Positions 30,574 through 57,470 are shown, numbered from the stretch's first letter. The stretch: 64,000 nucleotides of DNA from an uncultured Bacteroides sp. (GCA_964499325.1 CAZCKS010000001.1:5627-69626); one strand, 5' to 3'. The notes: generated by a model from the letters alone, not told the origin. Made by a program: numbers and translations.

Positions 30574-30719
30574 TTGCGTTTGACTAAATCAAAAGCATAT
30601 TCGATACCTTGATGTTTTACATAATAATCAAAATTCTTGCATGATGAATATGTATTAGAAAACATACGTATATCCAAAAAAAACGTGATAATCGACATAC
30701 TAAATACGCTTTTAGATGC

Positions 30720-30880
30720 AGTTGTTGACAACCTACCGTAATTGTTGATAACAAGTTGATTGTTTTGCACTTTTTGTCAACAATTATACACATAGATTTT
30801 TGCAAGATATTGCGGTTTTCAAATCACAATATAAGCATACTTTGTGGTTTAGATTTTATTTTCCACTTGTCAACATTGCT
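30720..30880. promoter_or_regulatory. Cluster of DnaA-box-like 9-mers followed by an A+T-rich tract upstream of dnaN (candidate oriC half / dnaN regulatory region)
   Basis: Compared with TTATCCACA. One mismatch: 30743-30751 (tgttgataa, complement) and 30784-30792 (ttatacaca). Two mismatches: 30723-30731, 30774-30782, 30843-30851, 30859-30867, 30867-30875. The tract 30876-30936 is almost pure A/T. Confidence 0.45.
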
Positions 30881-30936
30881 TATTTATGTTATCATTATTA
30901 AAGAATAAATTAAATAAAAAAATATACAGGCGGTTT

Positions 30937-32037
30937 ATGAAACTTATTTGTCAAGGAAACGAATTGAGCGACGCTCTCGCAAAAGTTGTAAAAGCACTTC
31001 CGGTAAAGCGCAATAATCCCATTTTAGACGGTGTAAAACTTACTGCACTTGGCGATACTCTTACGATTTTTGCAACTGATCTTGAACTTGCAATAGAAAA
31101 GAAAATCAATGCACAAGTGCTTATTGAGGGCGAAATCGTCGTCCCCGGCAAACTTTTTGCGGATTACGCAAAGAAAATCGAGGAAGAGCAAATCGAACTC
31201 GACGGCACAGATCCTGCAAAACTCATTATCAAATATCTTGATAGCGAATTGCAAATCAAGTGCATGAGCGCCGATGAATACCCCATTTTCAAAGAAGTTG
31301 ACACGCAAAACTCCTTTATTATTCTCAAAAAAGAATTTAAGGACATCATATCCAAGGTTATCTTCAACGTTGCTGTGGATGAAGCAAGACCGTCTTTGCG
31401 CGGTGTGTGCCTCAATATAAAAGACGAAGAAGTGGAAGCGGTTGCATCTGACGGATATCGCCTTGCTCTTGCGCGCGCACAAATCAAGAATAACGGTATT
31501 GTGGATAAAATTGTCGTGCCCTCAAAGAGCATGAATGAACTTGCCCGTCTTATCGACGAGGGTGAGGAAACTATCACCGTTTACGTTGAGAAGAACTATA
31601 TAATGGTTGACCTCTTCCATACCAAGATTGTCACAAGACTTATCGGCGAGGAATATATCAATTATGAGAAAATCATCCCTAGCGTGTTTACAACCGAAGT
31701 CACGATTGACAAAAAACTCTTTGAAAACGCAATCGACCGTGTATCTCTTATCAACCGCGCCGAGAAAAAATCCTATGTGAAAATGGAAATCAAAGAGGAT
31801 ACAATCTCTCTCAACGCTCACAGCGACGACGGCGAAATCAATGAAAAAGTCACAATCGGTCTCAAAGGCAAAGACCTTACAATCGGTTTCAACTCAAAAT
31901 ATATCATTGACAGCATGCACGCAATAGACGAGCCGTTTGTAACACTCAACTTCACCACGTCCACCGCTCCCGGAATTATAAAGGGGGAAAGTGATAGGTG
32001 GTTGTATTTGATTCTCCCCTTGCGCGTAATAGGATAA
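30937..32037 (+). CDS. dnaN: DNA polymerase III beta sliding clamp
   Basis: Start at MKLICQGNELSDAL.... Typical DnaN N-terminus, ~366 aa with three-domain length. Confidence 0.9.
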   Translation: MKLICQGNELSDALAKVVKALPVKRNNPILDGVKLTALGDTLTIFATDLELAIEKKINAQVLIEGEIVVPGKLFADYAKKIEEEQIELDGTDPAKLIIKYLDSELQIKCMSADEYPIFKEVDTQNSFIILKKEFKDIISKVIFNVAVDEARPSLRGVCLNIKDEEVEAVASDGYRLALARAQIKNNGIVDKIVVPSKSMNELARLIDEGEETITVYVEKNYIMVDLFHTKIVTRLIGEEYINYEKIIPSVFTTEVTIDKKLFENAIDRVSLINRAEKKSYVKMEIKEDTISLNAHSDDGEINEKVTIGLKGKDLTIGFNSKYIIDSMHAIDEPFVTLNFTTSTAPGIIKGESDRWLYLILPLRVIG

Positions 32038-32163
32038 TGAGAGCGTGAAATAGCGACTAACTTTGTCAGTGCCTTGCGTTTGACAACTCATGTACAAAAA
32101 GTACATTAGGGTTGCCAACAGCAAGGCACTTTCTCGTTATTCATCTATTTCACACTCTCATTA
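32035..32163 (+). repeat. H1: 129-nt imperfect palindrome / rod-like hairpin starting at the dnaN stop codon (family with H2, H3)
   Basis: Outer stem 32035-32053 / 32145-32163 (18 of 19 bp). Middle stem agtgccttgc / gcaaggcact. Apex atgtac aaaaa gtacat. Conserved loop strings ctaactttgtc and ttctcgttattc. Confidence 0.8.
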
Positions 32164-32289
32164 GATAATAAAAAACATATATTCCCAGACAATTACTGTG
32201 TATGATAATTCAAAAAACTCATTTAGATTGTTATTTATCTCAAAAAAATACCGATTTTAATGTTTTTGCTTTACAAATAAATTTATTTT

Positions 32290-32367
32290 ATATATTATTA
32301 TTAAGCATCCAAGCGGTGCAAATTCCTTTCCCGATAGGGACACAAGACCAAAAGGAGGTAAAAAAGT
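32290..32367 (+). promoter_or_regulatory. rpsF 5' leader with a hairpin that can sequester the RBS (possible S6:S18 autoregulatory leader)
   Basis: cctttcccgatagggacacaagaccaaaaggagg: ccttt can pair with aaagg of the SD region, and an inner hairpin tccc gata ggga is present. Confidence 0.3.
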
Positions 32368-32649
32368 ATGGATAAGTATGAAGTTCTCTACATCGTTCGT
32401 GGTGACGTTGATGACGACAAAAAGGCTCAAACTGTTGAAAAGTTTGAAAACTTGGTTGCTACTCTCGGCGGTACGGTTGACGGTTTGGACAAGTGGGGTA
32501 TGAGAAAGTTTGCTTACGAAATCAATAAGCAAAACGAAGGCTACTACGTTCTTATGAACATCACTTGCACAAAAGACGCACAAGCAGAACTTGACAGAAT
32601 CATGCGCAACGACGAAAATGTCGTAAGACAAATGATCATCAAGAAGTAA
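32368..32649 (+). CDS. rpsF: 30S ribosomal protein S6
   Basis: MDKYEVLYIVRGDVDDD... N-terminus, 93 aa, followed by ssb and rpsR. Confidence 0.9.
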   Translation: MDKYEVLYIVRGDVDDDKKAQTVEKFENLVATLGGTVDGLDKWGMRKFAYEINKQNEGYYVLMNITCTKDAQAELDRIMRNDENVVRQMIIKK

Positions 32650-32668
32650 TAAGATAAGGAGAAAATTT

Positions 32669-33052
32669 ATGAACAAAGTATTTTTGATCGGCAATTTGAC
32701 AAAAGATCCTGAATTGGCATCTACAAACAGCGGTATCAAATTTTGCAGATTTACACTTGCAGTGTCTCGCAGTTACGCAAAAGACGGCAAGAGAGAGACA
32801 GATTTTCTCCCTGTCGTAGTTTGGAGAGCACAAGCAGATAACTGCGCTCGTTACCTCAAAAAAGGTAGCAAAGCGGCTATTAGCGGAAGTATTCAAACAA
32901 GAAGTTATGACACGCAAGACGGTTCTCGTCGTTATGTGACAGAAATTGCAGCAGACGAAGTGCAATTCCTCTCTACAAGAAATGATGAAAACGGTGCAGA
33001 TGACGTCGATTTCGACGATCTCAAACCCATCGACGAAGACCTTCCATTCTAA
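32669..33052 (+). CDS. ssb: Single-stranded DNA-binding protein
   Basis: MNKVFLIGNLTKDPEL OB-fold N-terminus and acidic tip DEDLPF. Confidence 0.95.
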   Translation: MNKVFLIGNLTKDPELASTNSGIKFCRFTLAVSRSYAKDGKRETDFLPVVVWRAQADNCARYLKKGSKAAISGSIQTRSYDTQDGSRRYVTEIAADEVQFLSTRNDENGADDVDFDDLKPIDEDLPF

Positions 33053-33070
33053 TTTATAAGGAGTTAAAAA

Positions 33071-33319
33071 ATGGCTGAAGAAATCAAAGCACCACGCGCA
33101 CCCAAAAGAGTGCCCAAAAAGAAAGTGTGCATGTTCTGCGTAGACCATGTTGAAGATATCGACTACAAGGACGTTGCAAAACTCAAAAGATTCACAACCG
33201 AGAAGGGCAAAATCCTTCCCCGTCGTATGAGCGGTGTGTGCGCAAAGCACCAAAGAACGCTCGCAGTTGCTATTAAGAGAGCAAGAGTTATGGCTCTTCT
33301 CCCCTACAAAGCCGACTAA
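33071..33319 (+). CDS. rpsR: 30S ribosomal protein S18
   Basis: [43 protein letters not shown]. Confidence 0.95.
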
Positions 33320-33430
33320 ATCGCGAAATAATTGTGTCAGCACCCCGTTGCTTAAAAGTCGTGTACGCAAGTACACTTGGCTTTTATTCAACGGGGTGCT
33401 TTCTTATTCTTTGCGATTTAGTCGGCTTTG
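33307..33430 (+). repeat. H2: 124-nt rod-like hairpin overlapping the last codons and stop of rpsR
   Basis: Outer stem 33307-33324 / 33413-33430 (18 of 18 bp). Middle stem agcaccccgttg / caacggggtgct. Apex gtgtac GCAA gtacac. Loop strings aaataattgtgtc and ttcttattc. Confidence 0.8.
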
Positions 33431-33543
33431 TATAAGATAATATAATATATATTTTTCTGCGCAAAGGAATGACCAACGTTCAAAATTAGTATATAGCAAT
33501 TAAAAAGCCACTCAAACGAGTGACTTTTGTTAGTGATTGTGTT

Positions 33544-34773
33544 TTACACCGCTTGTCCATAAACATATCCGATGTAATTGGTTTCTTTATTCCAGTCTAA
33601 TTCTGTTTCAAATCTTAAGTTGCCGTCTTTGTCAATAACAAGAATGATATTTCCGTTATTGTCAGTTCGATATACCGCAATATTTCTTTCTTTAAAGCGG
33701 TCAAGCGTATCTTGGCGCGGATGATAGTAGGATTTGTGCAAATTACTGCTTATCATTGCATACTCAAATGTGTATGTATCAAGAAAATTTTCAGTTGAAG
33801 AAGAATCGCTACCGTGATGTCCTACTTTCAATACATCGCAATCTATCTTGCCGGTGCGTTTTGTTATAATCTTTTCATTTTTTGAATTACTGTCCCCCGT
33901 AAAGACGATTTTGCGATTGTTGTAAGTTAAAATACCAACAGGAGATACGGCATTTATAAGTTCCGAAGTGTTTAAACTTGTGCTATCGTAATACTCTTTT
34001 GTGGGACAATAGAACTTGAATTCGTATGTGTTATCGTCATCTGTAAGCACTATAGTATTTGAATTTTCATCTTCATCGACGTTTAACACGATATTACAAT
34101 TTGGCTCGTTCAATGCCGCGGCAAAAAATTCGGCATATTGGAGTGTTGATATTGTGTCTTTATCCTTAAAAAGTGCTATTTTGTCGCTTGGTATTGCCTC
34201 AAATTCACTACGGACTTCTGAACTTAAAGAATCCAAATTCGGCTCTGCCTTTATATAAGGCATAAATATATTATTAACTTGGAAAGCATCCACGACATCG
34301 TCGAGATATACTACATGATCTTCATCTGTATGCGTGAGCATAAGATATTCGATTGTTTTGTCTGTGATGTATGAGGAAAGATATTTAACAACGTCAGTCT
34401 CATCAAATTCACTATTATTATTCGGTTTTTTAGTGCTTCCACTATCTATAACCATATCTTTTCCGTCGGGAAGTTTGATATAAATGCAATCGCCCTGCCC
34501 TACATTTATCATGTGAACAACAAGATCATCTTCTCCGAAATTGAGATTTGGACCATTGTCGGCGTCTCTATTAAATATGCTGATTATCGCTTGATATGTA
34601 TCAGGAAATGCAAAATATATAACTGCAAATGTAATTGCAATTATAAGTACGATAGAAACAACGGCAATGATAAAAGCCTTTGGGTTTGCTTTATATGCCT
34701 TTTTTGCGATATCTTCTGCTGTTTTTTGTGATTTTTTAGCCATATTTATATTATATAAAAATACTATAGCCAT
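33544..34773 (-). CDS. Membrane-anchored metallo-beta-lactamase-fold protein, ComEC C-terminal-domain type
   Basis: HMINVGQGDC, LMLTHTDEDH, LKVGHHGSDSS, N-terminal TM segment. The start may be the MAKKSQ codon 10 residues in. Confidence 0.75.
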   Translation of the reverse strand: MAIVFLYNINMAKKSQKTAEDIAKKAYKANPKAFIIAVVSIVLIIAITFAVIYFAFPDTYQAIISIFNRDADNGPNLNFGEDDLVVHMINVGQGDCIYIKLPDGKDMVIDSGSTKKPNNNSEFDETDVVKYLSSYITDKTIEYLMLTHTDEDHVVYLDDVVDAFQVNNIFMPYIKAEPNLDSLSSEVRSEFEAIPSDKIALFKDKDTISTLQYAEFFAAALNEPNCNIVLNVDEDENSNTIVLTDDDNTYEFKFYCPTKEYYDSTSLNTSELINAVSPVGILTYNNRKIVFTGDSNSKNEKIITKRTGKIDCDVLKVGHHGSDSSSTENFLDTYTFEYAMISSNLHKSYYHPRQDTLDRFKERNIAVYRTDNNGNIILVIDKDGNLRFETELDWNKETNYIGYVYGQAV

Positions 34774-34913
34774 TGCAAATAAATATTTGTTAAGAATTGA
34801 ATATAAGACGCATAAAAGATGAGAAACAAGAAAGAGCCGCTTGAATGGACAGCCTAACGTATATGTAATACGTGACTGGATGATTTGATTATGTGGAAAA
34901 AATATATATAGTA

Positions 34914-35037
34914 TAAAATAGATATATCAGATAAAGAACAAGAAAACACCCATCCGAAACAAAACCAAACGTACTGACGTACGTGATTTTGGAGCGGATG
35001 GGTGTTGACACAGTTATTTGCTGATATATCTATTTTA
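34914..35037 (-). repeat. H3: 124-nt rod-like hairpin (minus orientation) starting at the proS stop codon
   Basis: Outer stem 34914-34930 / 35021-35037 (17 of 17 bp). Middle stem 34945-34956 / 34995-35006. Apex acgtac tgac gtacgt. Minus-strand loop strings caaataactgtgtc and ttcttgttctttat. Confidence 0.8.
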
Positions 35038-36474
35038 ATAGGCTTTGGCGAAATAGATGACGTGTGAAGCAGGCTTCCCGCACACCGGGCAAACATCGCC
35101 TACAGGTGTTTGGTCAAACGGCATACAACGTGACGTTGCTTGCATTGTTGCCTTGATATGCTCTTCGCAAGCACGGTCTCCGCACCACATTGTCTTGATG
35201 AATTTGTGGTTATTGAGAGCCTCTTGCATCTCATCGAGAGTATGGCAAGTGACAATGTTGGAATGCAAGAATTCGTGCGATTGATTGAACATATTCTTTT
35301 GAATATCGTCAAGCAGTTGCGGAATTTGCTCTGTCAAGTCGTCGATTTTGACTGCAAACTTGTCATGAGTGTCACGGCGAGCAATCATAACTTGACCGTT
35401 TTCTATATCGCGCGGACCGATTTCAAGACGTACTGGAACGCCTTTCATTTCCCACTCATTGAATTTCCAACCTGGAGATTGCTCTCTGTCATCAAGTTCT
35501 ACTCTTACGCCGATATTGCGGAGAGTTGATGCAACTTCGCTTGCCTTTTCCGTCACGCCTTCTTTGTGAGCGGCAACTGGAACGACTACCACTTGGATAG
35601 GTGCAACCATCGGAGGGAGTTTGAGACCGCGTTGGTCGCCATGTGCCATAATAAGAGCACCTATAAGACGGGTTGATACACCCCAACTTGTTTGATAAGG
35701 ATTTTTAAGTTGACCGTCTTTGTCAAGATATTTGATTTCAAAAGCAGAAGAGAAATTCTTGCCCAGATAGTGTGATGTACCCGATTGAAGCGCTTTTCCG
35801 TCGAGCATCATTGCTTCCATTGTGTAAGTGTCTACCGCACCTGCAAACTTCTCTTTTTCCGTCTTTCTGCCAACAAGAACGTCTATTGCAAGCACGTTTT
35901 GCATAAACTCACGATACACTTCGAGCATTTTGAGTGTTTCTTCTTCCGCCTCTTCCTTTGTTGCATGCAAAGTATGTCCTTCTTGCCAAAGGAATTCGCT
36001 TGTGCGGAGGAAAGGTCTTGTAGTCTTTTCCCAACGCACGACGTTTGCCCATTGATTGATAAGTACGGGTAAATCACGATAACTCTTAACCCACTTGGAA
36101 TACATAGAGCAAATGATAGTCTCGCTTGTGGGGCGTACAACAAGTTGTTCCTCAAGCGGAGTGTTGCCGATGTGTGTAACAAGCGCAACTTCCGGAGCAA
36201 AACCCTCGACGTGGTCTGCCTCTTTCACAAGGAAACTATATGGGATAAAGAGAGGAAAGTATGCGTTTTTGTGCCCTGTTTGTTTAAAACGCTTGTCCAA
36301 CTCGTGTTGGATATTTTCCCAAATTTCGTAGCCGTAAGGACGGATAACCATAGTGCCTTTTACGGGGCCGTAATCGACAAGTTGCGTCTTAAGCACAACG
36401 TCGGTGTACCATTGAGCGAAATCCTCGTTCATATCCGTGATTTCTTTTACAAATTGTTCTTTTTCCTTTGCCAT
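35035..36474 (-). CDS. proS: Proline--tRNA ligase (short, archaeal/eukaryote-like type with C-terminal Zn-binding domain)
   Basis: 479 aa. N-terminus FAQWYTDVVLKTQLVDYGPVKGTMVIRPYGYEIWE, class II core, C-terminal CGDRACEEHIK...CPVCG. Confidence 0.9.
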   Translation of the reverse strand: MAKEKEQFVKEITDMNEDFAQWYTDVVLKTQLVDYGPVKGTMVIRPYGYEIWENIQHELDKRFKQTGHKNAYFPLFIPYSFLVKEADHVEGFAPEVALVTHIGNTPLEEQLVVRPTSETIICSMYSKWVKSYRDLPVLINQWANVVRWEKTTRPFLRTSEFLWQEGHTLHATKEEAEEETLKMLEVYREFMQNVLAIDVLVGRKTEKEKFAGAVDTYTMEAMMLDGKALQSGTSHYLGKNFSSAFEIKYLDKDGQLKNPYQTSWGVSTRLIGALIMAHGDQRGLKLPPMVAPIQVVVVPVAAHKEGVTEKASEVASTLRNIGVRVELDDREQSPGWKFNEWEMKGVPVRLEIGPRDIENGQVMIARRDTHDKFAVKIDDLTEQIPQLLDDIQKNMFNQSHEFLHSNIVTCHTLDEMQEALNNHKFIKTMWCGDRACEEHIKATMQATSRCMPFDQTPVGDVCPVCGKPASHVIYFAKAY

Positions 36475-36676
36475 AATCTGCCTCTATATATTGTATATAT
36501 ATAATTATATACTGCTTTGATATTATATACTGTAATTCACACCTTGTAAAACGAAAAATGCATTTTTTATTCTTACGCGTTTTTAAGAGGTGTGATTGTT
36601 GTGCAAAATTTCTTTGAAAGTTGCAATAATGTAAAAGTCCGCCCATTGTCGGAGCGGACTCTTATGTTATAAACAA

Positions 36677-37147
36677 TTATTTATCAAGGTCGAAATCGTC
36701 GTCCTCTTCTTCCTCGTCGTCATCGTCATAATCGTTGATGTCGCCAATGTCGGTATCGTCAAAGTCGTCTTGATATGCGTTTTCTTCTTCGTCTTCTTCA
36801 AATTCCTCTTCTTCATCCTCTTGAAGTTGATTGAGAGACACTTCTTCCTCGTCATCATCGGTAACTACGTCATCGTCTACATAGTCTTCCCAATCGTCCT
36901 CATCGAGTTTGTCGGTATTAGAAGAAGATTGCTCCATTCTGCATGCAGGACACATATCCTCATCGGGTTCGAGATAATTGACCTTGCAAATCGGGCAAAT
37001 TCTCTCTTCGTCTTCTATTTCGTCATCGTCTTCGAGCAGACATATTTTGCTTGCCTTGCCAAGTTCCGCCTTGCAGACTTCGCAAAGTTCCTCTTCGGTT
37101 GCAATCCAATTAATTTCGCAACGAGGGCATTTTTTATATTTTCCCAT
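36677..37147 (-). CDS. Zinc-ribbon protein with an extremely acidic (D/E) C-terminal half
   Basis: Start set at MGKYKKCPRCE behind gagagg. Three CxxC pairs (CPRC, CEVC, CPIC...CPAC), then about 80 residues that are mostly D/E. Confidence 0.7.
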   Translation of the reverse strand: MGKYKKCPRCEINWIATEEELCEVCKAELGKASKICLLEDDDEIEDEERICPICKVNYLEPDEDMCPACRMEQSSSNTDKLDEDDWEDYVDDDVVTDDDEEEVSLNQLQEDEEEEFEEDEEENAYQDDFDDTDIGDINDYDDDDEEEEDDDFDLDK

Positions 37148-37499
37148 TTTCAACCTCTCTATAAGGGTTTTAACTTTCATATATTATATTGATAAGATGT
37201 GATTATGTAAACTATATTTTCATTTTTTCTGCAAATTTTTTCTTAAAACTTTATATTGTGTGTTTTCACCAATTTTTACCAACATATAGTGTTTGATTAA
37301 AAATGGTGAAAATAATTATTGAAAAGTTTACTTTATTTTGTTAAAATCCCTATTGTAAGTGGAAAAATTACAATATTTCGTCTTAATTGTCTCAAATAAA
37401 CAAAAAGTAACTTTGCTCGACAAAAAATGTTGAAAAGTGCAGTTTTTTGCTTGAAAACGGAATTTATAATATGGTTATACATATCTTTTGGAGGAATTT

Positions 37500-38237
37500 A
37501 TGAACAAGACTATAGTTATAGCAGACGACAATGCGTCTTTGTGCGCAAGTATACGCGATTTTATTGACGCAAAGGATAATTTGCAAGTAGTAGGCATTGC
37601 GCCAAACGGAGTGAAAGCACTCCAACTTGTCAACGAATATCAGCCAGATATTCTGCTTCTTGATATAGTTATGCCCGAGTTGGACGGCTTTGGAGTATTG
37701 AGTGCGCTCGAAGGCAAAAAACCGATAGTAATAATGATGTCCCAACTGGCAACAGACGGATTTGTGCAAAAAGCAATGCAATACGGAGCAAGTTATTTTC
37801 TTGCAAAACCCTTTGATTACAATGCTATGTTGAAAGTTATAGACGACTTGACAATGCCTCGTCAACGCATTGTGCAATCGCCAAAGAATCCCCATCTCGA
37901 CGAGAGAATAACTAATTTGTTTATATCTGTAGGTATTCCTGCGCATATCAAGGGCTATCAGTTCTTGCGCGAGGCAATAAAGATGACGATAGATACGCCG
38001 GATATTATCAATTCTATCACTAAAAGATTATATCCAGGCATAGCAATGAGATACAACACGTCGGCGTCAAAAGTTGAGCGCGCGATAAGGCATGCAATCG
38101 AAGTGGCATGGAACAGAGGCAAGATTGAAAATATCAATAACGTATTTGGTATAAAGATATACTCTCCCAACGAAAAACCCACCAACGGAGAGTTTATAGC
38201 GCTTGTGGCAGACAAACTGTTGCTTGAGTGCGCTTAA
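37500..38237 (+). CDS. spo0A: Sporulation master regulator Spo0A
   Basis: Receiver domain plus the Spo0A-specific C-terminus: [66 protein letters not shown]. Confidence 0.9.
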
Positions 38238-38315
38238 GATAGTAGCCCGTATATCGCTCTTTCAGGCAAAATGAAAGAGTGTATATATATATCATTTTCC
38301 CTCTTCCCCAACGTG

Positions 38316-38343
38316 AAAAAAGCGACGATTTGGTCGCTTTTTT
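38316..38343 (+). terminator. Intrinsic terminator after spo0A
   Basis: aaaaaagcgac gatttg gtcgctttttt. Confidence 0.8.
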
Positions 38344-38466
38344 CATATTTACAGCATTAAAATTATTAAAATGTCAAAATAGTTTCATTTAATCGCCATT
38401 ATCGTTGACTTATTATTTTGATTTATCTATAATACGGTACGAAATCGTACTTAACAAGAGGTTGTT

Positions 38467-38913
38467 ATGGATTATGTAAAAGAGTACAAGGCATTATTTT
38501 GGGAGTCGGACGGGCTATATAATTCCTTTATGGAATACTTTGGATTGTCTGCAAGCGAATCGATGACAATATTTTGTCTTGCCGATGGAATAGATAACCA
38601 ATCCGCAATATGCAAAAAACTGTATATGCCTAAACAAACAATACATTCCGTGATAAAAAAACTGGAACAAGCAGGCGCAGTAGTTGTTTCCAACGAAAAG
38701 GCTAAAGATAAGACCAAAAGCGTTGTGCTCACGGATGTCGGTCATAGGATTTATGCGGAAAAGGTTAGACCGCTTGATGAGGTAGAAAACGTGGCTTTTA
38801 GCATGCTCGATGCAGAAGAACAAAAGGAGTTTGTGCGTATATCAGCAAAATATAACGGGCTGTTGAGACAAACAATGTCCGATTATATAGCCAATGCGCA
38901 AAGAAAGAGTTGA
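38467..38913 (+). CDS. MarR-family transcriptional regulator
   Basis: 148 aa with a winged-HTH pattern (ICKKLYMPKQTIHSVIKKLEQAGAV). Precedes a MATE pump. Confidence 0.75.
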   Translation: MDYVKEYKALFWESDGLYNSFMEYFGLSASESMTIFCLADGIDNQSAICKKLYMPKQTIHSVIKKLEQAGAVVVSNEKAKDKTKSVVLTDVGHRIYAEKVRPLDEVENVAFSMLDAEEQKEFVRISAKYNGLLRQTMSDYIANAQRKS

Positions 38914-38919
38914 TGTGTT

Positions 38920-40263
38920 ATGGCAGTACATCTTGATGAACATTTTACATACAAAAAGATACTAAAGGCGGTGATAGCCCCCGTCTTTATGATGGTGTTC
39001 ACCTCAATTTACAGTATTGTTGACGGCATATTCGTGTCCAATTTCGTGGAAAACGGCAAGACGGCTTTTGCGGCGTTGAACCTCATCTCGCCCGTGATTA
39101 TGATTATCGGCGCGCTTGGTTTTATGATGGGTTCTGGCGGTTCCGCGCTTGTTGGTAAAACGCTTGGCGAGGGCGACAAGGAAAAAGCGAACAAGATTTT
39201 TTCGGGCATTGTATATTCCACCGTCGTGCTGGGCGTTGTGGTTACGCTGTGCGTGATTTTCTTTATCGAGCCGATTTCAAAACTTCTCGGCGCAACGGGT
39301 GAAAACGAGGCTTTGCTCCCTTATTGCGTGACTTATGGCACCATCATTATCGCTGCCGAGGTTGCGTTTATGTTGCAAAACCTCTTTCAAACATTCTTTA
39401 TTGTTGCGGAAAAACCCGGCATCGGATTTTTGGTGACGGCAATCGCAGGCGTGACAAATATGATTTTCGACGCAGTGTTTATTGTTGGGTGCAATATGGG
39501 ACTAGCGGGTGCGGCGTATGCAACCGTAATGGGACAAGTTGTCGGCGCTGTGATACCTATCATATATTTTGCGCGTCGTAACTCTGGCATTTTGCATCTC
39601 GGCAAGGCAACCTTCTCACCCAAAATGTTGTTTAAGACAGTCACTAACGGTTCGAGCGAACTTTTGAGTAACGTGGCGTCGTCTGTTGTCGGAATGGTGT
39701 ACAATGCACAACTTTTGAAATTTGCTGGAGAAAACGGAGTGTCGGCATACGGTGTAATAATGTATGTAAGTTTCATTTTTGCGGCAATATTCCTTGGATA
39801 TGCTGTGGGCACATCGCCAATAATCAGTTATAACTACGGTGCACAAAATCATGAAGAAATGAAGAATATGCGCAAGAAAAGCGTGCTTATAAACGTCATT
39901 GTAGGTGTGGTTATGACAGTGCTTGCTGTTGCGCTTGCGAGACCGCTGTCAAGCATATTTGTTGGCAAAGACGCAGAACTTTTGGATATGACAACGCACG
40001 CAATGCGCATATACTCAATATCATTCTTGTTTATGGGCTTCAATATATTTACATCCTCTTTCTTCACTGCCCTCAATAACGGATTGATTTCTGCAATCGT
40101 ATCATTTGCAAGAACGCTTATCTTCCAAATCGGCGCAGTGCTGTTGTTACCTCTTGCGGTAGGTATAGAGGGGATATGGTCTGCAATTATAGTGGCAGAA
40201 GGGCTTGCCGCGGTTATGGATGTTATATTTCTTATTGTATATCGTAAAAAATACAATTATTGA
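38920..40263 (+). CDS. MATE-family efflux transporter
   Basis: 447 aa, about 12 TM segments, with typical N-terminal IAPVFMMVFTSIYSIVDGIFVS. Confidence 0.85.
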   Translation: MAVHLDEHFTYKKILKAVIAPVFMMVFTSIYSIVDGIFVSNFVENGKTAFAALNLISPVIMIIGALGFMMGSGGSALVGKTLGEGDKEKANKIFSGIVYSTVVLGVVVTLCVIFFIEPISKLLGATGENEALLPYCVTYGTIIIAAEVAFMLQNLFQTFFIVAEKPGIGFLVTAIAGVTNMIFDAVFIVGCNMGLAGAAYATVMGQVVGAVIPIIYFARRNSGILHLGKATFSPKMLFKTVTNGSSELLSNVASSVVGMVYNAQLLKFAGENGVSAYGVIMYVSFIFAAIFLGYAVGTSPIISYNYGAQNHEEMKNMRKKSVLINVIVGVVMTVLAVALARPLSSIFVGKDAELLDMTTHAMRIYSISFLFMGFNIFTSSFFTALNNGLISAIVSFARTLIFQIGAVLLLPLAVGIEGIWSAIIVAEGLAAVMDVIFLIVYRKKYNY

Positions 40264-40323
40264 TAACACAACGGGAGTGCTAAATGTAGTGCTTAAGTAA
40301 AGTTAAAATAGCGATATAATAAC

Positions 40324-40351
40324 AAAAAGCGACGTTTATGCGTCGCTTTTT
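40324..40351. terminator. Bidirectional intrinsic terminator
   Basis: aaaaagcgacg tttatg cgtcgcttttt. Confidence 0.8.
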
Positions 40352-40401
40352 GCATGTTTAACATTGTTTTATTAATTGTTAGATGGTTGACTAATTGCTG
40401 A

Positions 40402-42282
40402 TTACCATTTTCCTCCGCCGCCAAAGCCACCGCCGGGACCGCCACCCGGTCTACCCATCGAGGCTGAAGAGCCTACCGAAGTTATAATGCTCGATATTGT
40501 AAATGTCTCAAGTGCGGTGCCGTTGCCATAGATGGTATACTCTTTGCCCTTTTCAAAAGACGCAAGGCTTATGATTGTCGATTGGCAAACCTTTTGCGTT
40601 GTTACACTGAACAATTCGTTGCCGTTTTCATCCTTTATTTGGATTGTACTACCGCTTGCAACCTTTGTACTTTGAGCATAGGATAGGACATATTGCGTTG
40701 AGTTGGTAGATGGCGTTTCCACCATTCCTAAAGTGGATGAGGAAAACACCGTTCCGCCTTGGATGATGATACCTGAGTCGGCATCGAGTGCGGCGTCGTG
40801 TCCGCTTGTGGGACCATGTACGATAACGGTACCGCCTGTGATGAGAATGCTTCCGTTGGAATCCAATCCGTCGCCGTCTGCGTTGACGGTGATGTTTCCG
40901 CCACTTATCGAGATATATTCTTTAATTGTTCTATCGTCGCTTGCGGCATTAACGCCGTCGTCGGACGCAACAACGTTTATCGTACCACCGCTTATTGTGA
41001 CATAAGCGCCTTCGATACCCTCATAACTTGATTGAATATCTATTGTGCCCCCGTTTATTTGAGTGATGTTATCGCTTGTGATACCGTCATCGAGGGTGTT
41101 GATCGTAACATTGCCATCAAATATCGCAACGTCTCCGCTGTTGGTGTGAATTGCGTCGTCTGTTGAGGTTATAGTTATTGTGCAGTTACCGTTGATTGAG
41201 ATAAGATAATCGCCGTCTGTCACGGTTATTTCGTTTTCGTTATCGTCGGTATAATCAATCTCACCCGCCTTAATGCCTTTGCAACTTTGACGCAGTGCAT
41301 AGCGAGAAGAGAGCGACGAGCGGTCGTCACTTGCGATTTTCTTGTATGTGCTACCCGATTTGATGTATCTGAAATCGTCAGAGACAAGGTCGTATGTGGC
41401 GAGATTGGAAGCGGAATATGATATAAACTCACCTTGCGTGGTTATGTTGATATTGCCACCCTTAATATACACCAAGGTATCTGCTTGTATGCCGTCGCCT
41501 TGCACGGTGCAAGTATAGGACGTGTTGTAAAGAGCGACAAATCCCTCGCTGTAATTTTTAGGGAACGTTGTCGTATCGTCGTCACACTCTGCATTGATAC
41601 CGTCCTTTGTGGCAGAAGTGACGTTGATTGTTGCATTTTGTGCTTCAACAGATTGTGCGCTTATGCCGTGATTGGCACTGCTTATTTGCAAGTTTACGTC
41701 AACAATAGAAAGTGCCTTTGTTACTTTTATACCACTTTTGCTTGTGCTTGCGATATTTATAGTGCCCTTACCGTTTATGTTAAGCGTGCCTTTGATGTGG
41801 ATTGCGTTGCCGTCCGTTGAGTTGCTTATGGTGTTTTGAGTGCCGTCAATTGCCGTTATCGTGACGATTGCGTTCTTATTTGTGGCAACGGCTACACCCT
41901 CTGCGTTGGATATTGCAGCGTTGTTTAAGAAGATGTGAACTTCGCTCTTTGAGGCAGTAATTTGTATGCCTTTTGTGTATGTTCCGCTCAACACATAGTC
42001 TCCGCCATTGGAAATTTCCAAAAGAGTATCGCTACCAGTATAAGAGGTTGCGCCTTGCGAAGAGGTGTCGTTTTTCAAGTCGCCCAAGTCTGAAAATGAG
42101 AAAGAGTCGTCGTCGACGGGCGGTATCTCGTCGGGTAGTGTGCCCACTCCGCCTCCACCGAGATTGTCGCCTGGATTTTTAAAAGGGTTATCTTCTTGCT
42201 CAGTCGGATTGCATGCAACCAAAACGGTGCATGTTATCACCAAGAGAACTGCAACGATTATTGTAAGCGCATTTCGTTTCAT
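40402..42282 (-). CDS. Lipoprotein with parallel beta-helix-type repeats and a Gly-rich C-terminus (Cthe_2159-like carbohydrate-binding family by recollection)
   Basis: Signal ends in LVAC. Many I.I.GG.(I/V).(I/V)...DG(I/L) turns. C-terminus GRPGGGPGGGFGGGGKW. Confidence 0.55.
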   Translation of the reverse strand: MKRNALTIIVAVLLVITCTVLVACNPTEQEDNPFKNPGDNLGGGGVGTLPDEIPPVDDDSFSFSDLGDLKNDTSSQGATSYTGSDTLLEISNGGDYVLSGTYTKGIQITASKSEVHIFLNNAAISNAEGVAVATNKNAIVTITAIDGTQNTISNSTDGNAIHIKGTLNINGKGTINIASTSKSGIKVTKALSIVDVNLQISSANHGISAQSVEAQNATINVTSATKDGINAECDDDTTTFPKNYSEGFVALYNTSYTCTVQGDGIQADTLVYIKGGNINITTQGEFISYSASNLATYDLVSDDFRYIKSGSTYKKIASDDRSSLSSRYALRQSCKGIKAGEIDYTDDNENEITVTDGDYLISINGNCTITITSTDDAIHTNSGDVAIFDGNVTINTLDDGITSDNITQINGGTIDIQSSYEGIEGAYVTISGGTINVVASDDGVNAASDDRTIKEYISISGGNITVNADGDGLDSNGSILITGGTVIVHGPTSGHDAALDADSGIIIQGGTVFSSSTLGMVETPSTNSTQYVLSYAQSTKVASGSTIQIKDENGNELFSVTTQKVCQSTIISLASFEKGKEYTIYGNGTALETFTISSIITSVGSSASMGRPGGGPGGGFGGGGKW

Positions 42283-42671
42283 AATAATGGCTCTCCATAT
42301 TTAGATTATATATATTATATAGTTAAACCATAAAAGAAACATTAAAATCTGTCAAAATGTATAATAAATTTTATTGCTATTTTTTAGTATAATACTGTGA
42401 AAAACCCCGTATATAATAAAAAACTCCCTATAAATGGGGGGGGAACGGAGCATCGCACAAAGGCAATACCCCGTTCTTTAGGAGAAGCAATAAAGATATA
42501 AGGTTATCTTGTGCCTTTACTATAGTGCTCATTTGTTAAACCAAAATGAAAAAACTACAAATATTTGCAAATATTTTATAAAAATATCGACAGGTTTAAA
42601 AGCCTGCCGATATTCAAAAACGGTGTTTTATCTTATTGGTTTGCGTCTTAAAACGTTGCGTTGTGATATTT

Positions 42672-43814
42672 TTATAAAAGAAGCGTTTTATCTTCGCCCA
42701 TTCCCATCATTCCGTCAAGCACATATTTATTGCCATCTTCGTCTCTCAAATATCCCTCAAGTTCGCCAAAAGCAACATAATAATCTATGTTTACGACTAC
42801 CGCATGAGTTATCATCGGGTTCATGTTGTATACCTTAAATTTGAGATTGACCATGTCGTGCTCGTCCTTAATAATCCACTCGGAATAATCGCAGAAATCT
42901 TTGCTTTCAGGAGATCTCGTAAAGGTTATCGGCGGAAGGATGCTTGTTTTTCCTTCAAACCACAAAATGTTTTCATTGTATTTGTCTTGGTCTATGGATT
43001 GATTTCTCGTAAGGTTGAAGGCAAGCCATTTTTCTTCGCCGTTGACATTGCATTTTCCCATTGTCGTCACCCAGTCATAGTGAGCGCGACGTGGATAATA
43101 TCCGCGGTGGTCGTCAACGATTGCTGTGCTGTCTTCATCTGTGAGCATCTCTTCGCCGTTGATAACAAGCCTACCCTCTGCCTTGAAGAAATCCTTTTGG
43201 CTGTAAAGAGGACGATTTTTGCCAAACGGTATGCTTGCCACGCACGGCAAGGAAAGACGTGTCAGTTTGAAATCATATTCTATTGTTGCCTCTCCATAGT
43301 TTTCTTTTATAGATTTGACAATAGTTTTGTCTTTGCGCCTTACGGTAATGAGGCATTTGCCCTCGTGTTTACCGCTCAAATCGCAACGTCCGTCTTGGAA
43401 ATTATTGACATATTTGACGTGCGAAACGGCAGTCTCGCCCTCTGCAACTGCTCCGTTAATAAGGTTGGGAGCAATGATTGTGTCTTTTGACTTAAGGTTG
43501 GTATCCCAGCAATAAACTTTTTTAGTGCGTTTGTCATAGAAAATGTTTAGCGTCTTGCCGAAAATGCCCATATCGCAAACAACGGCAAGCAATACGCCGT
43601 TTTTCAAATGCACTTCCGTTGCCTCCCAAAGCGTGAGTTTGAGACGATTCATACATTGAGGAGCCTTGGTTGGCTTTTTTAGAGAAACGAGATCCATTTC
43701 CTCAAATTCCTTGTCGAATGTGCCGAATCTGCACATCCCGTTTTCATCCACAATACTCTTTGGCGTAGGCACCGCTCTTCTTGTCTTATCGATATACTTG
43801 CTGTATTCCCCCAT
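42672..43814 (-). CDS. Hypothetical cytoplasmic protein (possibly DUF2804-like)
   Basis: 380-aa clean ORF with a terminator hairpin (atatcggcaggc/cctgtcgatat) downstream. The family guess rests on weak pattern memory only. Confidence 0.35.
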   Translation of the reverse strand: MGEYSKYIDKTRRAVPTPKSIVDENGMCRFGTFDKEFEEMDLVSLKKPTKAPQCMNRLKLTLWEATEVHLKNGVLLAVVCDMGIFGKTLNIFYDKRTKKVYCWDTNLKSKDTIIAPNLINGAVAEGETAVSHVKYVNNFQDGRCDLSGKHEGKCLITVRRKDKTIVKSIKENYGEATIEYDFKLTRLSLPCVASIPFGKNRPLYSQKDFFKAEGRLVINGEEMLTDEDSTAIVDDHRGYYPRRAHYDWVTTMGKCNVNGEEKWLAFNLTRNQSIDQDKYNENILWFEGKTSILPPITFTRSPESKDFCDYSEWIIKDEHDMVNLKFKVYNMNPMITHAVVVNIDYYVAFGELEGYLRDEDGNKYVLDGMMGMGEDKTLLL

Positions 43815-44010
43815 ACTTTGCTCCTTTGTATTTATTATATTTCCGATTGATGAAAATATCTAAAAATATGGTAACTTGATTTTTGTCACTTGTCAATATC
43901 AAATGTTCAAACTGCGTTGAAGAGACGGCATTATATATACTATACAAAACCTCGCATGAAAAAAGTCGCTATTGCGACCTTTTTCCATTGTTAGTATAAC
44001 AAAATTTGTT

Positions 44011-44229
44011 TTACGTTTCCACTAAATCATAAAACTTGTACTGTGGATGATTGCGCATCTTTCGCTGTGCCCAATCTATAGCAGTAGCCTTGCGCTCCAC
44101 ACTCAAACCATATTCCCTTTCAAGAATATCAATTATATTTTGTTGTGTGAGTATATGATTTTCATCCGAATATTCAAATAATACCTGATATAGTCTAAAC
44201 AACAATGTTTGCTTGTTTTCAAACCCCAT
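44011..44229 (-). CDS. 72-aa stand-alone winged-HTH protein resembling the N-terminal DNA-binding domain of WYL-type regulators (WYL domain absent)
   Basis: LFRLYQVLFEYSDENHILTQQNIIDILEREYGLSVERKA fits the L..L.e.sDe.HpLt..eI...Le.yGi.veRK pattern. RBS ggggga upstream and a terminator downstream. Confidence 0.5.
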   Translation of the reverse strand: MGFENKQTLLFRLYQVLFEYSDENHILTQQNIIDILEREYGLSVERKATAIDWAQRKMRNHPQYKFYDLVET

Positions 44230-44280
44230 AATTATTCCCCCGTTTTGTGCAATTCTGTTTTATGGCAGGGATAAAACATG

Positions 44281-44859
44281 TTATCTTTTCCTTATTTTTG
44301 AAATTGTCTCCCATTCTCTGCCATCACTAAACATGTCGGCGGAGTATACCCTATGAATTACATTTTCTTGTTCGGCATCAAATAAATATTCGTGATATGA
44401 TTTTATAGGCTTTCCCGATTGCAACGGTTGAACAATATCATACGATTCAACAAATTTAGACAATCTGCCCGCATTGTAATCAATAAATCCTGTAATACAT
44501 ACTTCTTTTCTGTTTACATCGTACCACACTATTTCTATATGATGTTCATAATAGTAATAGAAAATCAAATTGAGCAATTTCTCCTGATCGCCATATCTTT
44601 CCGTAAGGCGCAAGCGGCCCTTTTCATCAAAATAGTATGAAAAATGTTTTCTTTTTTCATTTGTGGTAAGTTTTCCCTTATAATCGAAATATTTGCTTAT
44701 TTCCATGTCTGGCAAAAAACATCCATACAAATCAATCCCTTTACTCATAACTTTTTGAGGGCATGATGAAACAATTTCTTCATATTCGTCCACACAATTT
44801 CGATGATTTTGTGCGATTGCAAGCAATCTTGAACAAGTTTCTTCATCATATCTTGTCAT
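44281..44859 (-). CDS. Hypothetical protein, 192 aa, no recognisable family
   Basis: RBS aggagag upstream. Cytoplasmic, Tyr/Glu-rich. Forms an operon with the 72-aa HTH gene. Confidence 0.7.
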   Translation of the reverse strand: MTRYDEETCSRLLAIAQNHRNCVDEYEEIVSSCPQKVMSKGIDLYGCFLPDMEISKYFDYKGKLTTNEKRKHFSYYFDEKGRLRLTERYGDQEKLLNLIFYYYYEHHIEIVWYDVNRKEVCITGFIDYNAGRLSKFVESYDIVQPLQSGKPIKSYHEYLFDAEQENVIHRVYSADMFSDGREWETISKIRKR

Positions 44860-44920
44860 ATTAATCTCTCCTAATAATTACATTACAACGATGATGTGTC
44901 CATCCCCCCATATTTTTAGA

Positions 44921-46336
44921 TTATTCATTTATCCATTTTGCATACAGGTCGATATCGCCATGGATTCCCGCCTCGCGCATCGTTATCGGATCGCCCGTGA
45001 AATCAGGATTATCATACCAACCGTCAAACGCAGATTCATCTTTTATCGGTGACGCATACTCATAAGCTTCGCTCTCCACCGTATATTCGGCATGTTTTTC
45101 GTTGGTATAATCGTTTATCCCTCCGTTCAAATGATATGTAACCGTATAAACTATCGGGATCCAACACGCATATACCGTCACATCACCAATCTCGCCAACG
45201 GCTATATTCTCTTCCACTGGCGAATCAAACACCGCATCGGTATACCAGCCACCAAACTCATAATAATCTCTGCTCGGCTCTTTAAACGCATATCCGTCTT
45301 GCATCGTATACTGCTCGCATTCAATCTCGTCACCGCCATTTACCTCATACGTAACGGTATATTTTGTCAAGGTGTACACTGCGGTTATGCTCATATCATC
45401 CGTAATGCAAGTAAGGTCTTCCTCGCTCCACTTTCCGTCATATCCGCGCTTGGGTGTAACGGCAGGAATATCTTTAGCGTCTTTGCCATGCGCTACCTTT
45501 ATCTCGGTACTAATAGTCCCGTCATTGAAAACAAGAGTATACAACTTTTCCTTTATCGTTAACACTGCGCTAATGGAAGAAATTTGTTCGTAATTATTGC
45601 CCGTATCAAATGTTGCCGTAACCGTATGTTTTCCAGCATCTATCTGATTATTTCCATCATACGATACTGTCACGCCATTCGGCAACGGAGTGCTTATGTA
45701 TATGCTATGTTCTTTTCCGTCCCAATCAACGGAACAGTCTTCAAACACTATATTCCCGACACTTGCTTTTTGTATGGTTAATGTGGCGGTTAATTCAAGA
45801 GATTTATACCCGTCTTTGCAAATCATTGCGCTCACGACATATTCTCCGGCAGCCACTTTGTCTCCACCTTCATAACTAACCGTGGCCCCGCTTGGTATAC
45901 CACTTGCCTCTATGGTGTGTGCGTTTCCGTCATAAGTCACTGTCTTGTCTGCAAATATAACGCCTTCAATCTCGGCAAGTTCTGCCCATTTGGCATACAA
46001 CACCAAACTCTCCGACGGCATACTATCAAAAGTAAATTCGCTTTTAATCTCACATTCGATATCTTCGCACCAATACAAGAACACATGACCGTCTTTTGTC
46101 GGCGCAGGAACCTCTTGTCCAACGCTCCACTTTACGTTTTCTTCTCCATTATTTAGCACCAACAGCACGTCCGATGTCGGTTGCATAGGATCATTTTCAT
46201 CACAAGCGGAAAGCATAAGCGCAATAAACATAATCATAAGAACTAAAAACAACACCTTATGCATAAGAGTTTTGTGCATGTTTTTACGCACATTATTGCC
46301 GTTACACACATCTTTTGTATACATATATTCACTCAT
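44921..46336 (-). CDS. Surface lipoprotein with Listeria-Bacteroides repeats (Flg_new) and MBG-type domains
   Basis: Signal ends in LSAC. Repeats end in LYAKW, VYACW and LYAKW with a G(W)Y.D motif. TVTYDGNAHTI...GEYVV-type MBG units are present. Confidence 0.7.
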   Translation of the reverse strand: MSEYMYTKDVCNGNNVRKNMHKTLMHKVLFLVLMIMFIALMLSACDENDPMQPTSDVLLVLNNGEENVKWSVGQEVPAPTKDGHVFLYWCEDIECEIKSEFTFDSMPSESLVLYAKWAELAEIEGVIFADKTVTYDGNAHTIEASGIPSGATVSYEGGDKVAAGEYVVSAMICKDGYKSLELTATLTIQKASVGNIVFEDCSVDWDGKEHSIYISTPLPNGVTVSYDGNNQIDAGKHTVTATFDTGNNYEQISSISAVLTIKEKLYTLVFNDGTISTEIKVAHGKDAKDIPAVTPKRGYDGKWSEEDLTCITDDMSITAVYTLTKYTVTYEVNGGDEIECEQYTMQDGYAFKEPSRDYYEFGGWYTDAVFDSPVEENIAVGEIGDVTVYACWIPIVYTVTYHLNGGINDYTNEKHAEYTVESEAYEYASPIKDESAFDGWYDNPDFTGDPITMREAGIHGDIDLYAKWINE

Positions 46337-47500
46337 AATTTTCCTTTGTAATTAACAAATCGATTATACTATGTGCGCCCAAAGGCGTCAAGATATTTGT
46401 AAAGAGCACAAACGGGGAGAAGATGTTTTTACTATTTATACAGAAAAAGTTGCATTTTATTTCAACTGTTTGAAAATATTGTTCCTAAAGCCAACAAAAC
46501 CGTTAAAGAGTGGAATAAAACACCCTTCCGCCCGACAGTGCATTTGCCCCGGCTGTTAAGTATTACACATACGGGCCACGATGCGACCCTTATATTGGTT
46601 ATTTATGTAGTCAATGAATAAACGGGTATCTCAAAGCCAATTCATCGGCAATACGGATTGTCAATTATGCCGTCCTTATACGTCTTGTGGATGAGGACAA
46701 TCATTAAATGAAGAATTTACATTGAGCAAAACTATTATAAATAGAATAAAAAGAGGTTGTAACGTGCGGAAGTCATTAACTCCACCTACTAACCTCTTGC
46801 AACAACGTTGCGTGTTAATATTATTATTTTTGTCTTGATATGTCAATCAAAAATGTGCGAAACAGAATTATGCGTTTTGGGAAGAAGATTCCCCCAATAT
46901 CACAATTTTCAAATATAAATCGCAAAAAAAATAAGTAAGCATATCTTTGGCACAAAGCCAAAACCGTCACTTACTTATCGTTGGATTTCTCCAACGATTG
47001 CAGTATACGCGCAAGTTGGGTTTGCTGTCAAGCAAAAACACAATACAGTGGAATATGTATAAATCTGCGATGAAAATTTATCCATAAGGATAAAAATCGA
47101 ATAAAAAAGGAATGAGTTTCGCAAGAGGAATCCATCCAATTAAGGAATTATCTCATTTCTATGGTTATTATAAGCACAAAACAGAGGCTTTTAAGTCAAA
47201 CAATTTATTAAAAGAGAGATGAAGTGATAATAAATAAGAAAAAGGTAACGACGTGCCAATTACTCAAATTTCATCAGCCCGATTTCAAACGAAATCGTCG
47301 TTACTATTAGATATTGTATGTAAAACAAAGCGTAAAGTCAATAAAAATTTGACAGATAAAACTCTTGATACTCTTTTTTCCTGTTGGTTAATGTGCGATG
47401 TCCTCATTATTCTCTATATAGTATAACATATTAATGCTATTTTCGCAATGGCAAACAAAAAACCTAAACCAAACTTTATGGGTTCGATTTAGGTTTTGAA

Positions 47501-47592
47501 TGGCGGAGAAGCAGGGATTTGAACCCTGGCTACGATTCACTCGTACTACTCCCTTAGCAGGGGAGCCCCTTCGGCCTCTTGGGTACTTCTCC
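47501..47592 (-). tRNA. tRNA-Ser (anticodon GCU), CCA encoded
   Basis: Acceptor GGAGAAG/CTTCTCC, anticodon loop CTGCTAA, long variable arm, T-arm CAGGGTTCAAATCCCTG. A terminator hairpin lies downstream at 47461-47497. Confidence 0.9.
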
Positions 47593-47721
47593 AAAAATGC
47601 GAACTGTGTTGAGACATTGTGTTCTTCTATCAGCCTGCATATAATATCACAACATTAATTGAGTTGTCAATAATTTTAATTTGATTGCGTTGGCAAACTT
47701 AAATTGGGATGGGTTTATTAC

Positions 47722-55129: not shown

Positions 55130-55159
55130 CTCCGTTTTTTATGTTATAATATGCTTACT

Positions 55160-57415: not shown

Positions 57416-57470
57416 AACCGTGTGGCTAAATCGGATGGTGCTTAAATAAGCGCACAAGGGGTGGAAAAAT

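Follow-up and report, generated by a model that had tools for sequence, protein, structure and literature searches.

The origins of Firmicutes are usually described as part of an rnpA-rpmH-dnaA-dnaN unit with a two-part oriC. The element that opens the duplex, the basal unwinding system, was defined in Bacillus subtilis and is widespread (PMC6669920, PMC8287927): at least three consecutive NAN triplets, running 3′ to 5′ away from a DnaA box, lie within 16 bp of that box, which may carry up to two mismatches (PMC8287927). In B. subtilis unwinding needs rightward-facing boxes, and distal boxes act at up to 462 bp (PMC6669920), while in Clostridioides difficile both oriC1 and oriC2 are needed together in vitro (PMC7561715). 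A second kind of arrangement, in which oriC adjoins dnaN and dnaA lies elsewhere, is found in Cyanobacteria and Sorangium cellulosum (PMC3531139, PMC2650636), so the principle of a dnaN-adjacent origin with a distant dnaA is already known. Here we describe a 64,000-nucleotide stretch of DNA (GCA_964499325.1, CAZCKS010000001.1:5627-69626; hereinafter the window), deposited under the name of an uncultured Bacteroides sp., in which the spacer upstream of dnaN (30574..30936, + strand) is a candidate oriC in a lineage whose dnaA has been displaced from it. A full-text literature search with origin terms and Christensenellaceae returned no paper naming that family.

The window encodes a complete DNA polymerase III beta clamp (dnaN, 30937..32037, +) with all three Pfam beta-clamp domains and, cut by the right window edge, the C-terminal 139 codons (domain IV) of dnaA on the opposite strand (63581..64000; Pfam Bac_DnaA_C, E = 8e-28). 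This fragment includes the DnaA helix-turn-helix domain; the full-length protein of relatives has about 455 residues. The two genes are convergent, with 32.6 kb from the dnaN start to the dnaA stop and 31.5 kb from stop to stop, and the Pfam-identified genes and their coordinates thus bear out the original prediction that dnaN is inverted and 32.6 kb away from dnaA. Upstream, across the spacer, dnaN neighbors an ArsP-type permease gene, and 3′ of dnaA the place of dnaN is taken by a hairpin with a T-run followed by a convergent open reading frame (ORF). The DnaN protein is 99% identical to those of gut Clostridia metagenome-assembled genomes (MAGs) labeled 'Christensenella sp.' (UBA767, UBA7571, and similar), with DNA identity of only about 84%; exact-protein look-ups with DnaN and with the ORF at 62945-63526, and a metagenome scan with the latter, gave no match, so that the collections searched lack the species itself. 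We consider it probable that the spacer is the chromosomal, monopartite oriC of an uncultured human-gut Clostridia bacterium (the 'Christensenella sp.' of the MAG label), descended from the oriC2/incC region that lies between dnaA and dnaN in Firmicutes.

Like B. subtilis incC and C. difficile oriC2 (PMC6669920, PMC8287927, PMC7561715), the spacer has several boxes, a tandem box pair facing trinucleotide repeats across a short variable spacer, and an A/T tract ahead of dnaN. Unlike these, it does not lie between dnaA and dnaN, lacks the rnpA-rpmH context, has AAT in place of GAT trios, has only mismatched boxes (of the TTGTCAACA type), and has a core that also reads as a strong promoter; moreover, in relatives recF is divergent from dnaA and no incAB/oriC1 partner is seen 5′ of dnaA. 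With the Cyanobacteria and Sorangium origins it shares the position 5′ of dnaN and a TTTTCCACA-type box, present in the window as TTTTCCACT; it differs from them in belonging to another phylum, in that the separation can be traced within a single clade (adjacent, convergent, 31.5 kb apart), and in that dnaA stays in the neighborhood.

DnaA-box-like sites and a putative unwinding core upstream of dnaN

The spacer contains nine box-like 9-mers at up to two mismatches to TTATCCACA, two with one mismatch (30743, −; 30784, +) and seven with two (30670, 30689, 30723, 30774, 30843, 30859, and 30867). The original prediction had counted seven in all; its two one-mismatch boxes were right, and its five two-mismatch boxes become seven. 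Its chance expectation of about one at equal base frequencies also holds (352/4^9 × 355 positions × 2 strands = 0.95), rising to about two when corrected for composition. The excess survives that correction, which the prediction had itself proposed as a check: dinucleotide-preserving shuffles of the spacer yielded 1.95 ± 1.3 boxes, with none of 2000 reaching nine, and nine is the maximum for any 363-bp interval across the 64 kb (mean 1.78). Neither the rest of the 64 kb nor the 10-kb flanks examined in relatives yielded a box cluster of similar density. The variant TTGTCAACA recurs locally: of five exact copies in the window, three fall inside the spacer. Four distal boxes occupy conserved positions, two on the minus strand (30723-30731, TTGTCAACA; 30743-30751, TTATCAACA) and two on the plus strand (30774-30782, TTGTCAACA; 30784-30792, TTATACACA), those at 30743 and 30774 forming an 18-nt inverted repeat; at the corresponding alignment columns relatives have the perfect boxes TGTGGATAA or TTATCCACA. 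Separately, four one-mismatch box-like 9-mers lie within 560 bp just 3′ of dnaA (62536, 62911, 62964, 63085; about 0.3 expected), with two TTATCAACA copies in opposite orientation flanking the start of the 62945 ORF; this group (62536-63093) could reflect DnaA-regulated expression or chance.

The 3′ part of the spacer has the layout of an unwinding region. A tandem pair of rightward-facing boxes overlapping by 1 nt (TTTTCCACT and TTGTCAACA; 30859..30875, +), which corresponds to boxes #6/#7 of B. subtilis, is followed by a 4-nt variable spacer (TTGC, 30876-30879) and then by DnaA-trio-like triplets (30880..30900), which on the bottom strand read 3′-AAT AAA TAC AAT AGT AAT AAT-5′ away from the boxes, with A as the middle base in six of the seven. 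Beyond these lie an A/T-rich tract, a putative DNA unwinding element (30901..30925), the ribosome-binding site AGGCGG (30928-30933), and the dnaN ATG. The box orientation and the box-plus-NAN-triplet arrangement both agree with the B. subtilis rules (PMC8287927, PMC6669920). The nearly pure A/T stretch earlier assigned to 30876-30936 is real and somewhat less pure than was claimed, with 82% A+T over that interval and about 91% only in its core (30880-30925).

We examined the conservation of this region using 133 related loci, 53 of them dnaN-centered and drawn from genomes and 80 dnaA-centered and drawn from metagenomes (designated below by L numbers where needed), and aligned the spacers of 26 relatives, canonical outgroups included. 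Across this alignment the box positions are conserved in both orientations, with variants alternating among species between TGTGGATAA/TTATCCACA and TGTTGACAA/TTGTCAACA. Every relative tested has four to nine box-like sites in the 400 bp 5′ of dnaN, and with a relaxed box motif the interval upstream of dnaN ranks first, alone or in a tie, in 21 of 28 sequences and never lower than second. The 3′ block is near-invariant in layout (TTTTCCAC-TTGTCAACA, four variable nucleotides, TTATTTATGTTATCATTATTAAAGA, A/T tract, AGGCGG, ATG): 24 clade members have the box pair (TCCACTTGTCAACA) unchanged or almost so, the triplets are nearly invariant across the clade, and the A/T-rich tract stands at the same position in all aligned relatives with a varying sequence. 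The 46-nt block of box pair, spacer, and triplets has a mean identity of 88% in 24 species, with the 4-nt spacer as its variable part, against 42% at the saturated four-fold sites of dnaN, which points to strong purifying selection on this non-coding core. In two more distant loci (L129/L132) the homologous position holds CTACTACTACTACTA, that is, five 3′-GAT-5′ repeats, the textbook trios (CTA repeats). The module lies 5′ of dnaN in all four gene arrangements that we observed (canonical with the genes adjacent, convergent, tandem dnaN>dnaA>, and divergent), except in a few distant loci of canonical order (L118, L121), where 3.5 kb separate dnaN from dnaA. Locus comparison and spacer alignment therefore agree with the earlier proposal that the box cluster and A/T element travel with dnaN.

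Origin or promoter: the core, strand composition, and gene orientation

The core also reads as a promoter. A σ70-type dnaN promoter is predicted at 30867..30895 (+), with a −35 of TTGTCA, a 17-nt spacer, and an extended −10 (TG-T-TATCAT), scoring 10/12 with the TG; its −35 is the proximal DnaA box and its −10 falls inside the trio-like triplets, where one subclade has TATAAT or TATTAT. A promoter here would suit an inverted, monocistronic dnaN, since such a gene needs one of its own. If the spacer is the origin, DnaA supplied in trans from the gene 32 kb away would bind the distal boxes and the tandem pair at 30859-30875, oligomerize from that pair onto the triplets at 30880-30900, and open the A/T tract just 5′ of the dnaN start codon; because the core also reads as the dnaN promoter, DnaA occupancy would probably control clamp expression as well. 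A stronger version is a tentative one, which we rate below even odds by some way: that unwinding core and promoter are one and the same DNA, with firing and clamp transcription mechanically coupled or mutually exclusive, and the origin fully monopartite and independent of linkage to dnaA. Such a fusion, if real, would explain why the module has stayed with dnaN through at least four rearrangements while dnaA drifted up to 32 kb away.

The most serious competing explanation takes the spacer to be only a DnaA-regulated promoter of monocistronic dnaN, with replication starting outside the window. It draws on the promoter score of the invariant block and on the established role of DnaA in regulating transcription of the dnaA-dnaN operon, as well as on a gene orientation around the spacer opposite to the usual pattern at origins and on a raw skew minimum that lies elsewhere in the window. 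We nevertheless regard it as unlikely. The sequence TTAT(T/A)TATG between the −35 and −10 is nearly invariant, though a promoter needs no conservation there; the extra box fused upstream of the −35 and the four to five position-conserved boxes in both orientations are superfluous for a promoter; the spacer is the direct homolog of the canonical dnaA-dnaN spacer, with classic GAT trios in distant relatives; within the 64 kb and the 10-kb flanks of relatives its box cluster has no equal in density; and the corrected skew flips at the spacer.

That skew result came from block-wise, orientation-corrected GC skew at third-codon positions (GC3 skew) with a gene bootstrap, which we used in place of two simpler measures so as to tell the effect of replication from that of the coding strand. 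Raw cumulative GC skew has an ambiguous profile: it falls over 1-30 kb, flattens, and falls again through the cas block to a minimum near 55 kb, not at 30.7 kb, and a one-switch regression on gene orientation and position likewise picks 55.4 kb, a choice that we attribute to the aberrant composition of the cas block (44-55 kb). To the left of the spacer (1-30.6 kb) the corrected value is −0.118. On the right it is +0.106 at 32.3-43.8 kb, drops to −0.045 across the cas block (minus-strand genes only, 44.2-55.2 kb), and reaches +0.170 at 55.6-63.5 kb; the difference between the left side and the gap is 0.18-0.26, with gene-bootstrap intervals excluding zero. With this change of sign at the spacer, the gap between dnaN and dnaA behaves as if replicated rightward from its left end, and GC3 skew favors the dnaN spacer over a site beyond dnaA. 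Pooled skew over relatives was set aside as weak evidence since the same few orthologs recur, and the fact that dnaN falls at about 830.1 kb, well inside the complete record CP091723.1, was rejected as a clue since record start points are arbitrary.

Several observations weigh against placing the origin at the spacer. The skew analyses cover the 64-kb window, within which the two uncorrected measures just described put the minimum or switch near 55 kb. In relatives, the DNA on the far side of dnaA is nearly devoid of polarity (+0.014). The dnaN gene itself has a GC3 skew of −0.36, which is lagging-strand-like; as canonical outgroups span +0.03 to −0.33, we rejected this value as an origin test. 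Of the coding bases, 66% to the left and 74% within the gap face the spacer, a pattern atypical of Firmicute origins, and in relatives parA-parB-rsmG, too, are directed toward dnaA. The boxes of the window species are all mismatched, with zero perfect copies in its spacer. The most conserved block being also a good promoter, its conservation alone is no proof of origin function. Finally, the window ends inside dnaA, and for this genome the missing dnaA-upstream box cluster rests on relatives.

In favor of the spacer, rpsF-ssb-rpsR and tRNA-Ala/Ile point rightward and ftsH-cysE-cysS and tRNA-Asn leftward, all of them away from it. Exact parS sites (TGTTNCACGTGAAACA) were recovered at a distance of 6-10 kb from dnaA (L002, position 20233; L054, 783; L059-L067, ~1600-2800; L129-L132, ~3100-3900), which in the convergent loci places them on the recF/parB side, and together with parA-parB-rsmG, a few kb past dnaA, they mark this neighborhood in relatives as an origin-proximal domain; the window, which ends inside dnaA, has zero parS sites.

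Gene order around dnaN and dnaA in relatives

Mapping of gene order in the 133 loci by tblastn recovered the convergent arrangement of the window (dnaN> <dnaA) in 61 loci from independent assemblies, where the interval between the two genes ranges from 80 bp to 8.4 kb, with a median of 757 bp. The canonical order (dnaA> dnaN>) was seen in 14 loci, all with DnaN at most 66% identical, the tandem order dnaN> dnaA> in eight, and the divergent <dnaA dnaN> in five. In the closest relatives (L002, L020, L054; DnaN identity 98-99%) the two genes converge across about 400-600 bp. The usual frame in the clade comprises yyaC, two large genes, an ABC-F gene, ArsP, the spacer, dnaN, the gap, dnaA, divergent recF, and parB-parA-rsmG. 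Three outgroups (L049, L050, L114) have the canonical order in a frame collinear on both sides, with ftsH-cysE-cysS-yyaC and a large gene beyond dnaN and recF with parA-parB beyond dnaA, and the orientation of spacer plus dnaN is the sole difference. Thus, the flipped outgroup reads <ftsH <yyaC .. o12155> o11435> <dnaN [sp] <dnaA recF> .. <parB <parA, and the clade reads .. g23131> o11435> ArsP> [sp] dnaN> <dnaA recF> <parB <parA.

Since the outgroups differ only in the orientation of the cassette and 61 assemblies are convergent, the simplest reconstruction is that an ancestor of the clade inverted a cassette of about 1.5 kb, consisting of the spacer and dnaN alone, in place, leaving dnaN and dnaA convergent; its breakpoints would lie at the dnaA 3′ end and immediately 3′ of dnaN. 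No convincing inverted repeats that might have served as a flip mechanism were found flanking the cassette. Outgroup synteny upholds one part of the original prediction: compared with canonical loci, dnaN is reversed together with its spacer of boxes and A/T tract, and the 3′ end of dnaA is one of the breakpoints. The extent proposed for the event fares differently. A single recent inversion of about 33 kb (30574-63580) was held to have carried a CRISPR-Cas/restriction-modification island (CRISPR, clustered regularly interspaced short palindromic repeats) and to have split a bipartite oriC, and reversing that segment does geometrically restore dnaA-spacer-dnaN, canonical Firmicute origins being indeed bipartite (PMC7561715). 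This we judge very improbable: the 61 convergent assemblies, some with 98-99% identical DnaN, have short gaps and in no case the island; the outgroups differ by the cassette only and, like the relatives, have no box cluster 5′ of dnaA; and the gap holds housekeeping genes (rpsF-ssb-rpsR, proS, tRNAs) and so is not simply an island. The CRISPR-Cas and methylase genes, instead of riding on an inverted block, sit in later-added material between the two gene ends.

Small origin-spanning inversions ('flip-flop' around oriC) were reportedly described by Eisen in 2000 and Mackiewicz in 2001. As in these, the segment inverted here would hold the origin, with dnaN staying co-oriented with the fork that leaves the unwinding site; the unit differs in being a single-gene cassette of about 1.5 kb and not a large symmetric segment, and at least four arrangements occur among the relatives. 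The origin neighborhood is unusually plastic in L021, L028, L033-L051, L093-L109, and L129-L133, where dnaA, recF, ArsP, parAB-rsmG, and yyaC switch side or orientation independently of one another. In these loci only the spacer with dnaN remains intact, and L129-L133 are divergent (<dnaN dnaA>) with classic GAT trios.

As to a second origin part, the distance from dnaA to the divergent recF is about 107-150 bp in relatives and canonical outgroups (107 bp in L002, 147 bp in L049), and the 400 bp 5′ of dnaA hold zero to five weak box matches, the background level, in relatives including 22 convergent loci from the genome collections and equally in the outgroups L049/L050. The earlier claim that a bipartite oriC was split accordingly lacks support. 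In the clade the 10 kb around dnaN and dnaA lack rpmH, which turns up only in distant loci such as L116-L132, the rnpA-rpmH-dnaA-dnaN context thus being found in neither the window nor the clade. One could still imagine a long-range bipartite origin in which a second box region next to dnaA, beyond the window edge, loops to the dnaN spacer. The action of distal boxes in B. subtilis (PMC6669920), the joint need for oriC1 and oriC2 in C. difficile (PMC7561715), a small box cluster 5′ of dnaA in the tandem dnaN>dnaA> subclade, and the four one-mismatch boxes at 62536-63093 would all suit such a scheme. We hold it to be just as improbable as the 33-kb inversion, for the dnaA-recF region of the 22 convergent relatives is short and at background, and the separation of the two regions, which ranges from 1.5 to 34 kb depending on the species, is hard to fit to a fixed loop.

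Least probable of all is an assembly artefact by which the 31.5-kb block would have been misplaced between the two genes: the right-hand junction (62945-63526 ORF/dnaA) and its ORF have no counterpart in the collections searched and the cas block is aberrant in composition, but dozens of assemblies share the left junction (ArsP-spacer-dnaN-3′ hairpin), convergent dnaA is the clade norm, and L005 independently holds the proS, 36677, 37464, and 40402 genes between dnaN and dnaA in the same order. On the misassembly check that the original prediction had called for, then, the recurrence of the arrangement in relatives excludes a misassembly of the arrangement as such, and the right junction is the part without a counterpart in the collections searched.

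The gap between dnaN and dnaA and the meaning of the series

The variable region between the convergent genes (32164..63580) is, at 31.5 kb, the largest such gap seen. Directly 3′ of dnaN it contains rpsF-ssb-rpsR (32368-33319, +), followed by proS (35035-36474, −), tRNA-Ser(GCT) (47501-47592, −) adjoining a CRISPR array (47729-49077; period 66, about 20 units), a type II-A csn2-cas2-cas1-cas9 locus (49212-55129, −), an N6-methylase gene (55613-57415, +), and a tRNA-Ala(TGC)/tRNA-Ile(GAT) pair (58702-58857, +; tRNA starts at 58702 and 58781). Further genes code for an MBL-fold protein, MarR/MatE, surface proteins, an ABC/FtsX transporter, and a TetR protein. Two minus-strand ORFs (32257-32739 and 32639-33391) that cover rpsF-ssb-rpsR on the plus strand were rejected as spurious, and an ORF at 48350-48886 as an artefact of the CRISPR repeats. 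The normal place of a tRNA-Ala/tRNA-Ile pair is the spacer of rRNA operons; here the pair stands alone, with zero rRNA genes in the window.

None of the 133 related loci has rpsF-ssb-rpsR within 10 kb of dnaN or dnaA, which indicates that this housekeeping operon was relocated into the gap in the lineage of the window. The gap cargo of relatives is unrelated (a Sel1/TPR protein, a PfkB kinase with an Indigoidine_A-family gene, an M4 peptidase, surface proteins), and L005 shares with the window only the segment from proS to the 40402 gene (proS, 36677, 37464, 40402), in the same order and orientation between dnaN and dnaA. No relative matches the window in having cas9-cas1-cas2-csn2, a CRISPR array, or an N6 methylase at this site. 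Judged from these comparisons, the gap content (CRISPR-Cas/methylase, rpsF-ssb-rpsR, proS) is a lineage-specific expansion added after the cassette inversion. Pfam scans of the gap genes yielded no integrase or transposase domain; no dedicated search for border repeats was made. The block at 44281-55129, comprising two surface-protein genes and csn2-cas2-cas1-cas9, has a plus-strand GC skew of −0.11 to −0.26 with GC3 skew near 0, a strongly aberrant strand composition that would fit a recent arrival from a foreign source.

The left edge of the gap is marked by a 129-nt hairpin of nested inverted repeats that begins at the dnaN stop codon (32035..32163, +), with a folding free energy of −60 kcal/mol (z = −10), compensatory changes at 34 of 46 pairs in 12 species, and conserved internal loops. 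A hairpin just 3′ of dnaN is also present in L002-L005, L007, L010-L012, L014, L018-L020, L028, L046, and L048. Its U-G pairs favor a plus-strand RNA, and in L020/L048 the inner part is in reverse-complement sense. An Rfam scan returned only tRNAs and one sub-threshold match, with no family for the hairpin. It is a conserved structured 3′ element, probably a long terminator; it may be an unusually long and perhaps bidirectional one between the convergent genes, or else an undescribed element of the 3′ untranslated region.

The clade offers a natural rearrangement series, in which dnaN and dnaA are canonical, convergent, tandem-reversed, divergent, or 31.5 kb apart and in which only the module of box pair, triplets, and A/T tract has proved inseparable from dnaN. 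This series points to a minimal cis-acting origin for which linkage to dnaA would not be required, and it suggests a coupling of initiation with clamp expression. For these abundant gut MAGs, origin calls, and with them genome rotation, peak-to-trough growth estimates, and the definition of replichores, should be anchored on the dnaN spacer and not on dnaA.

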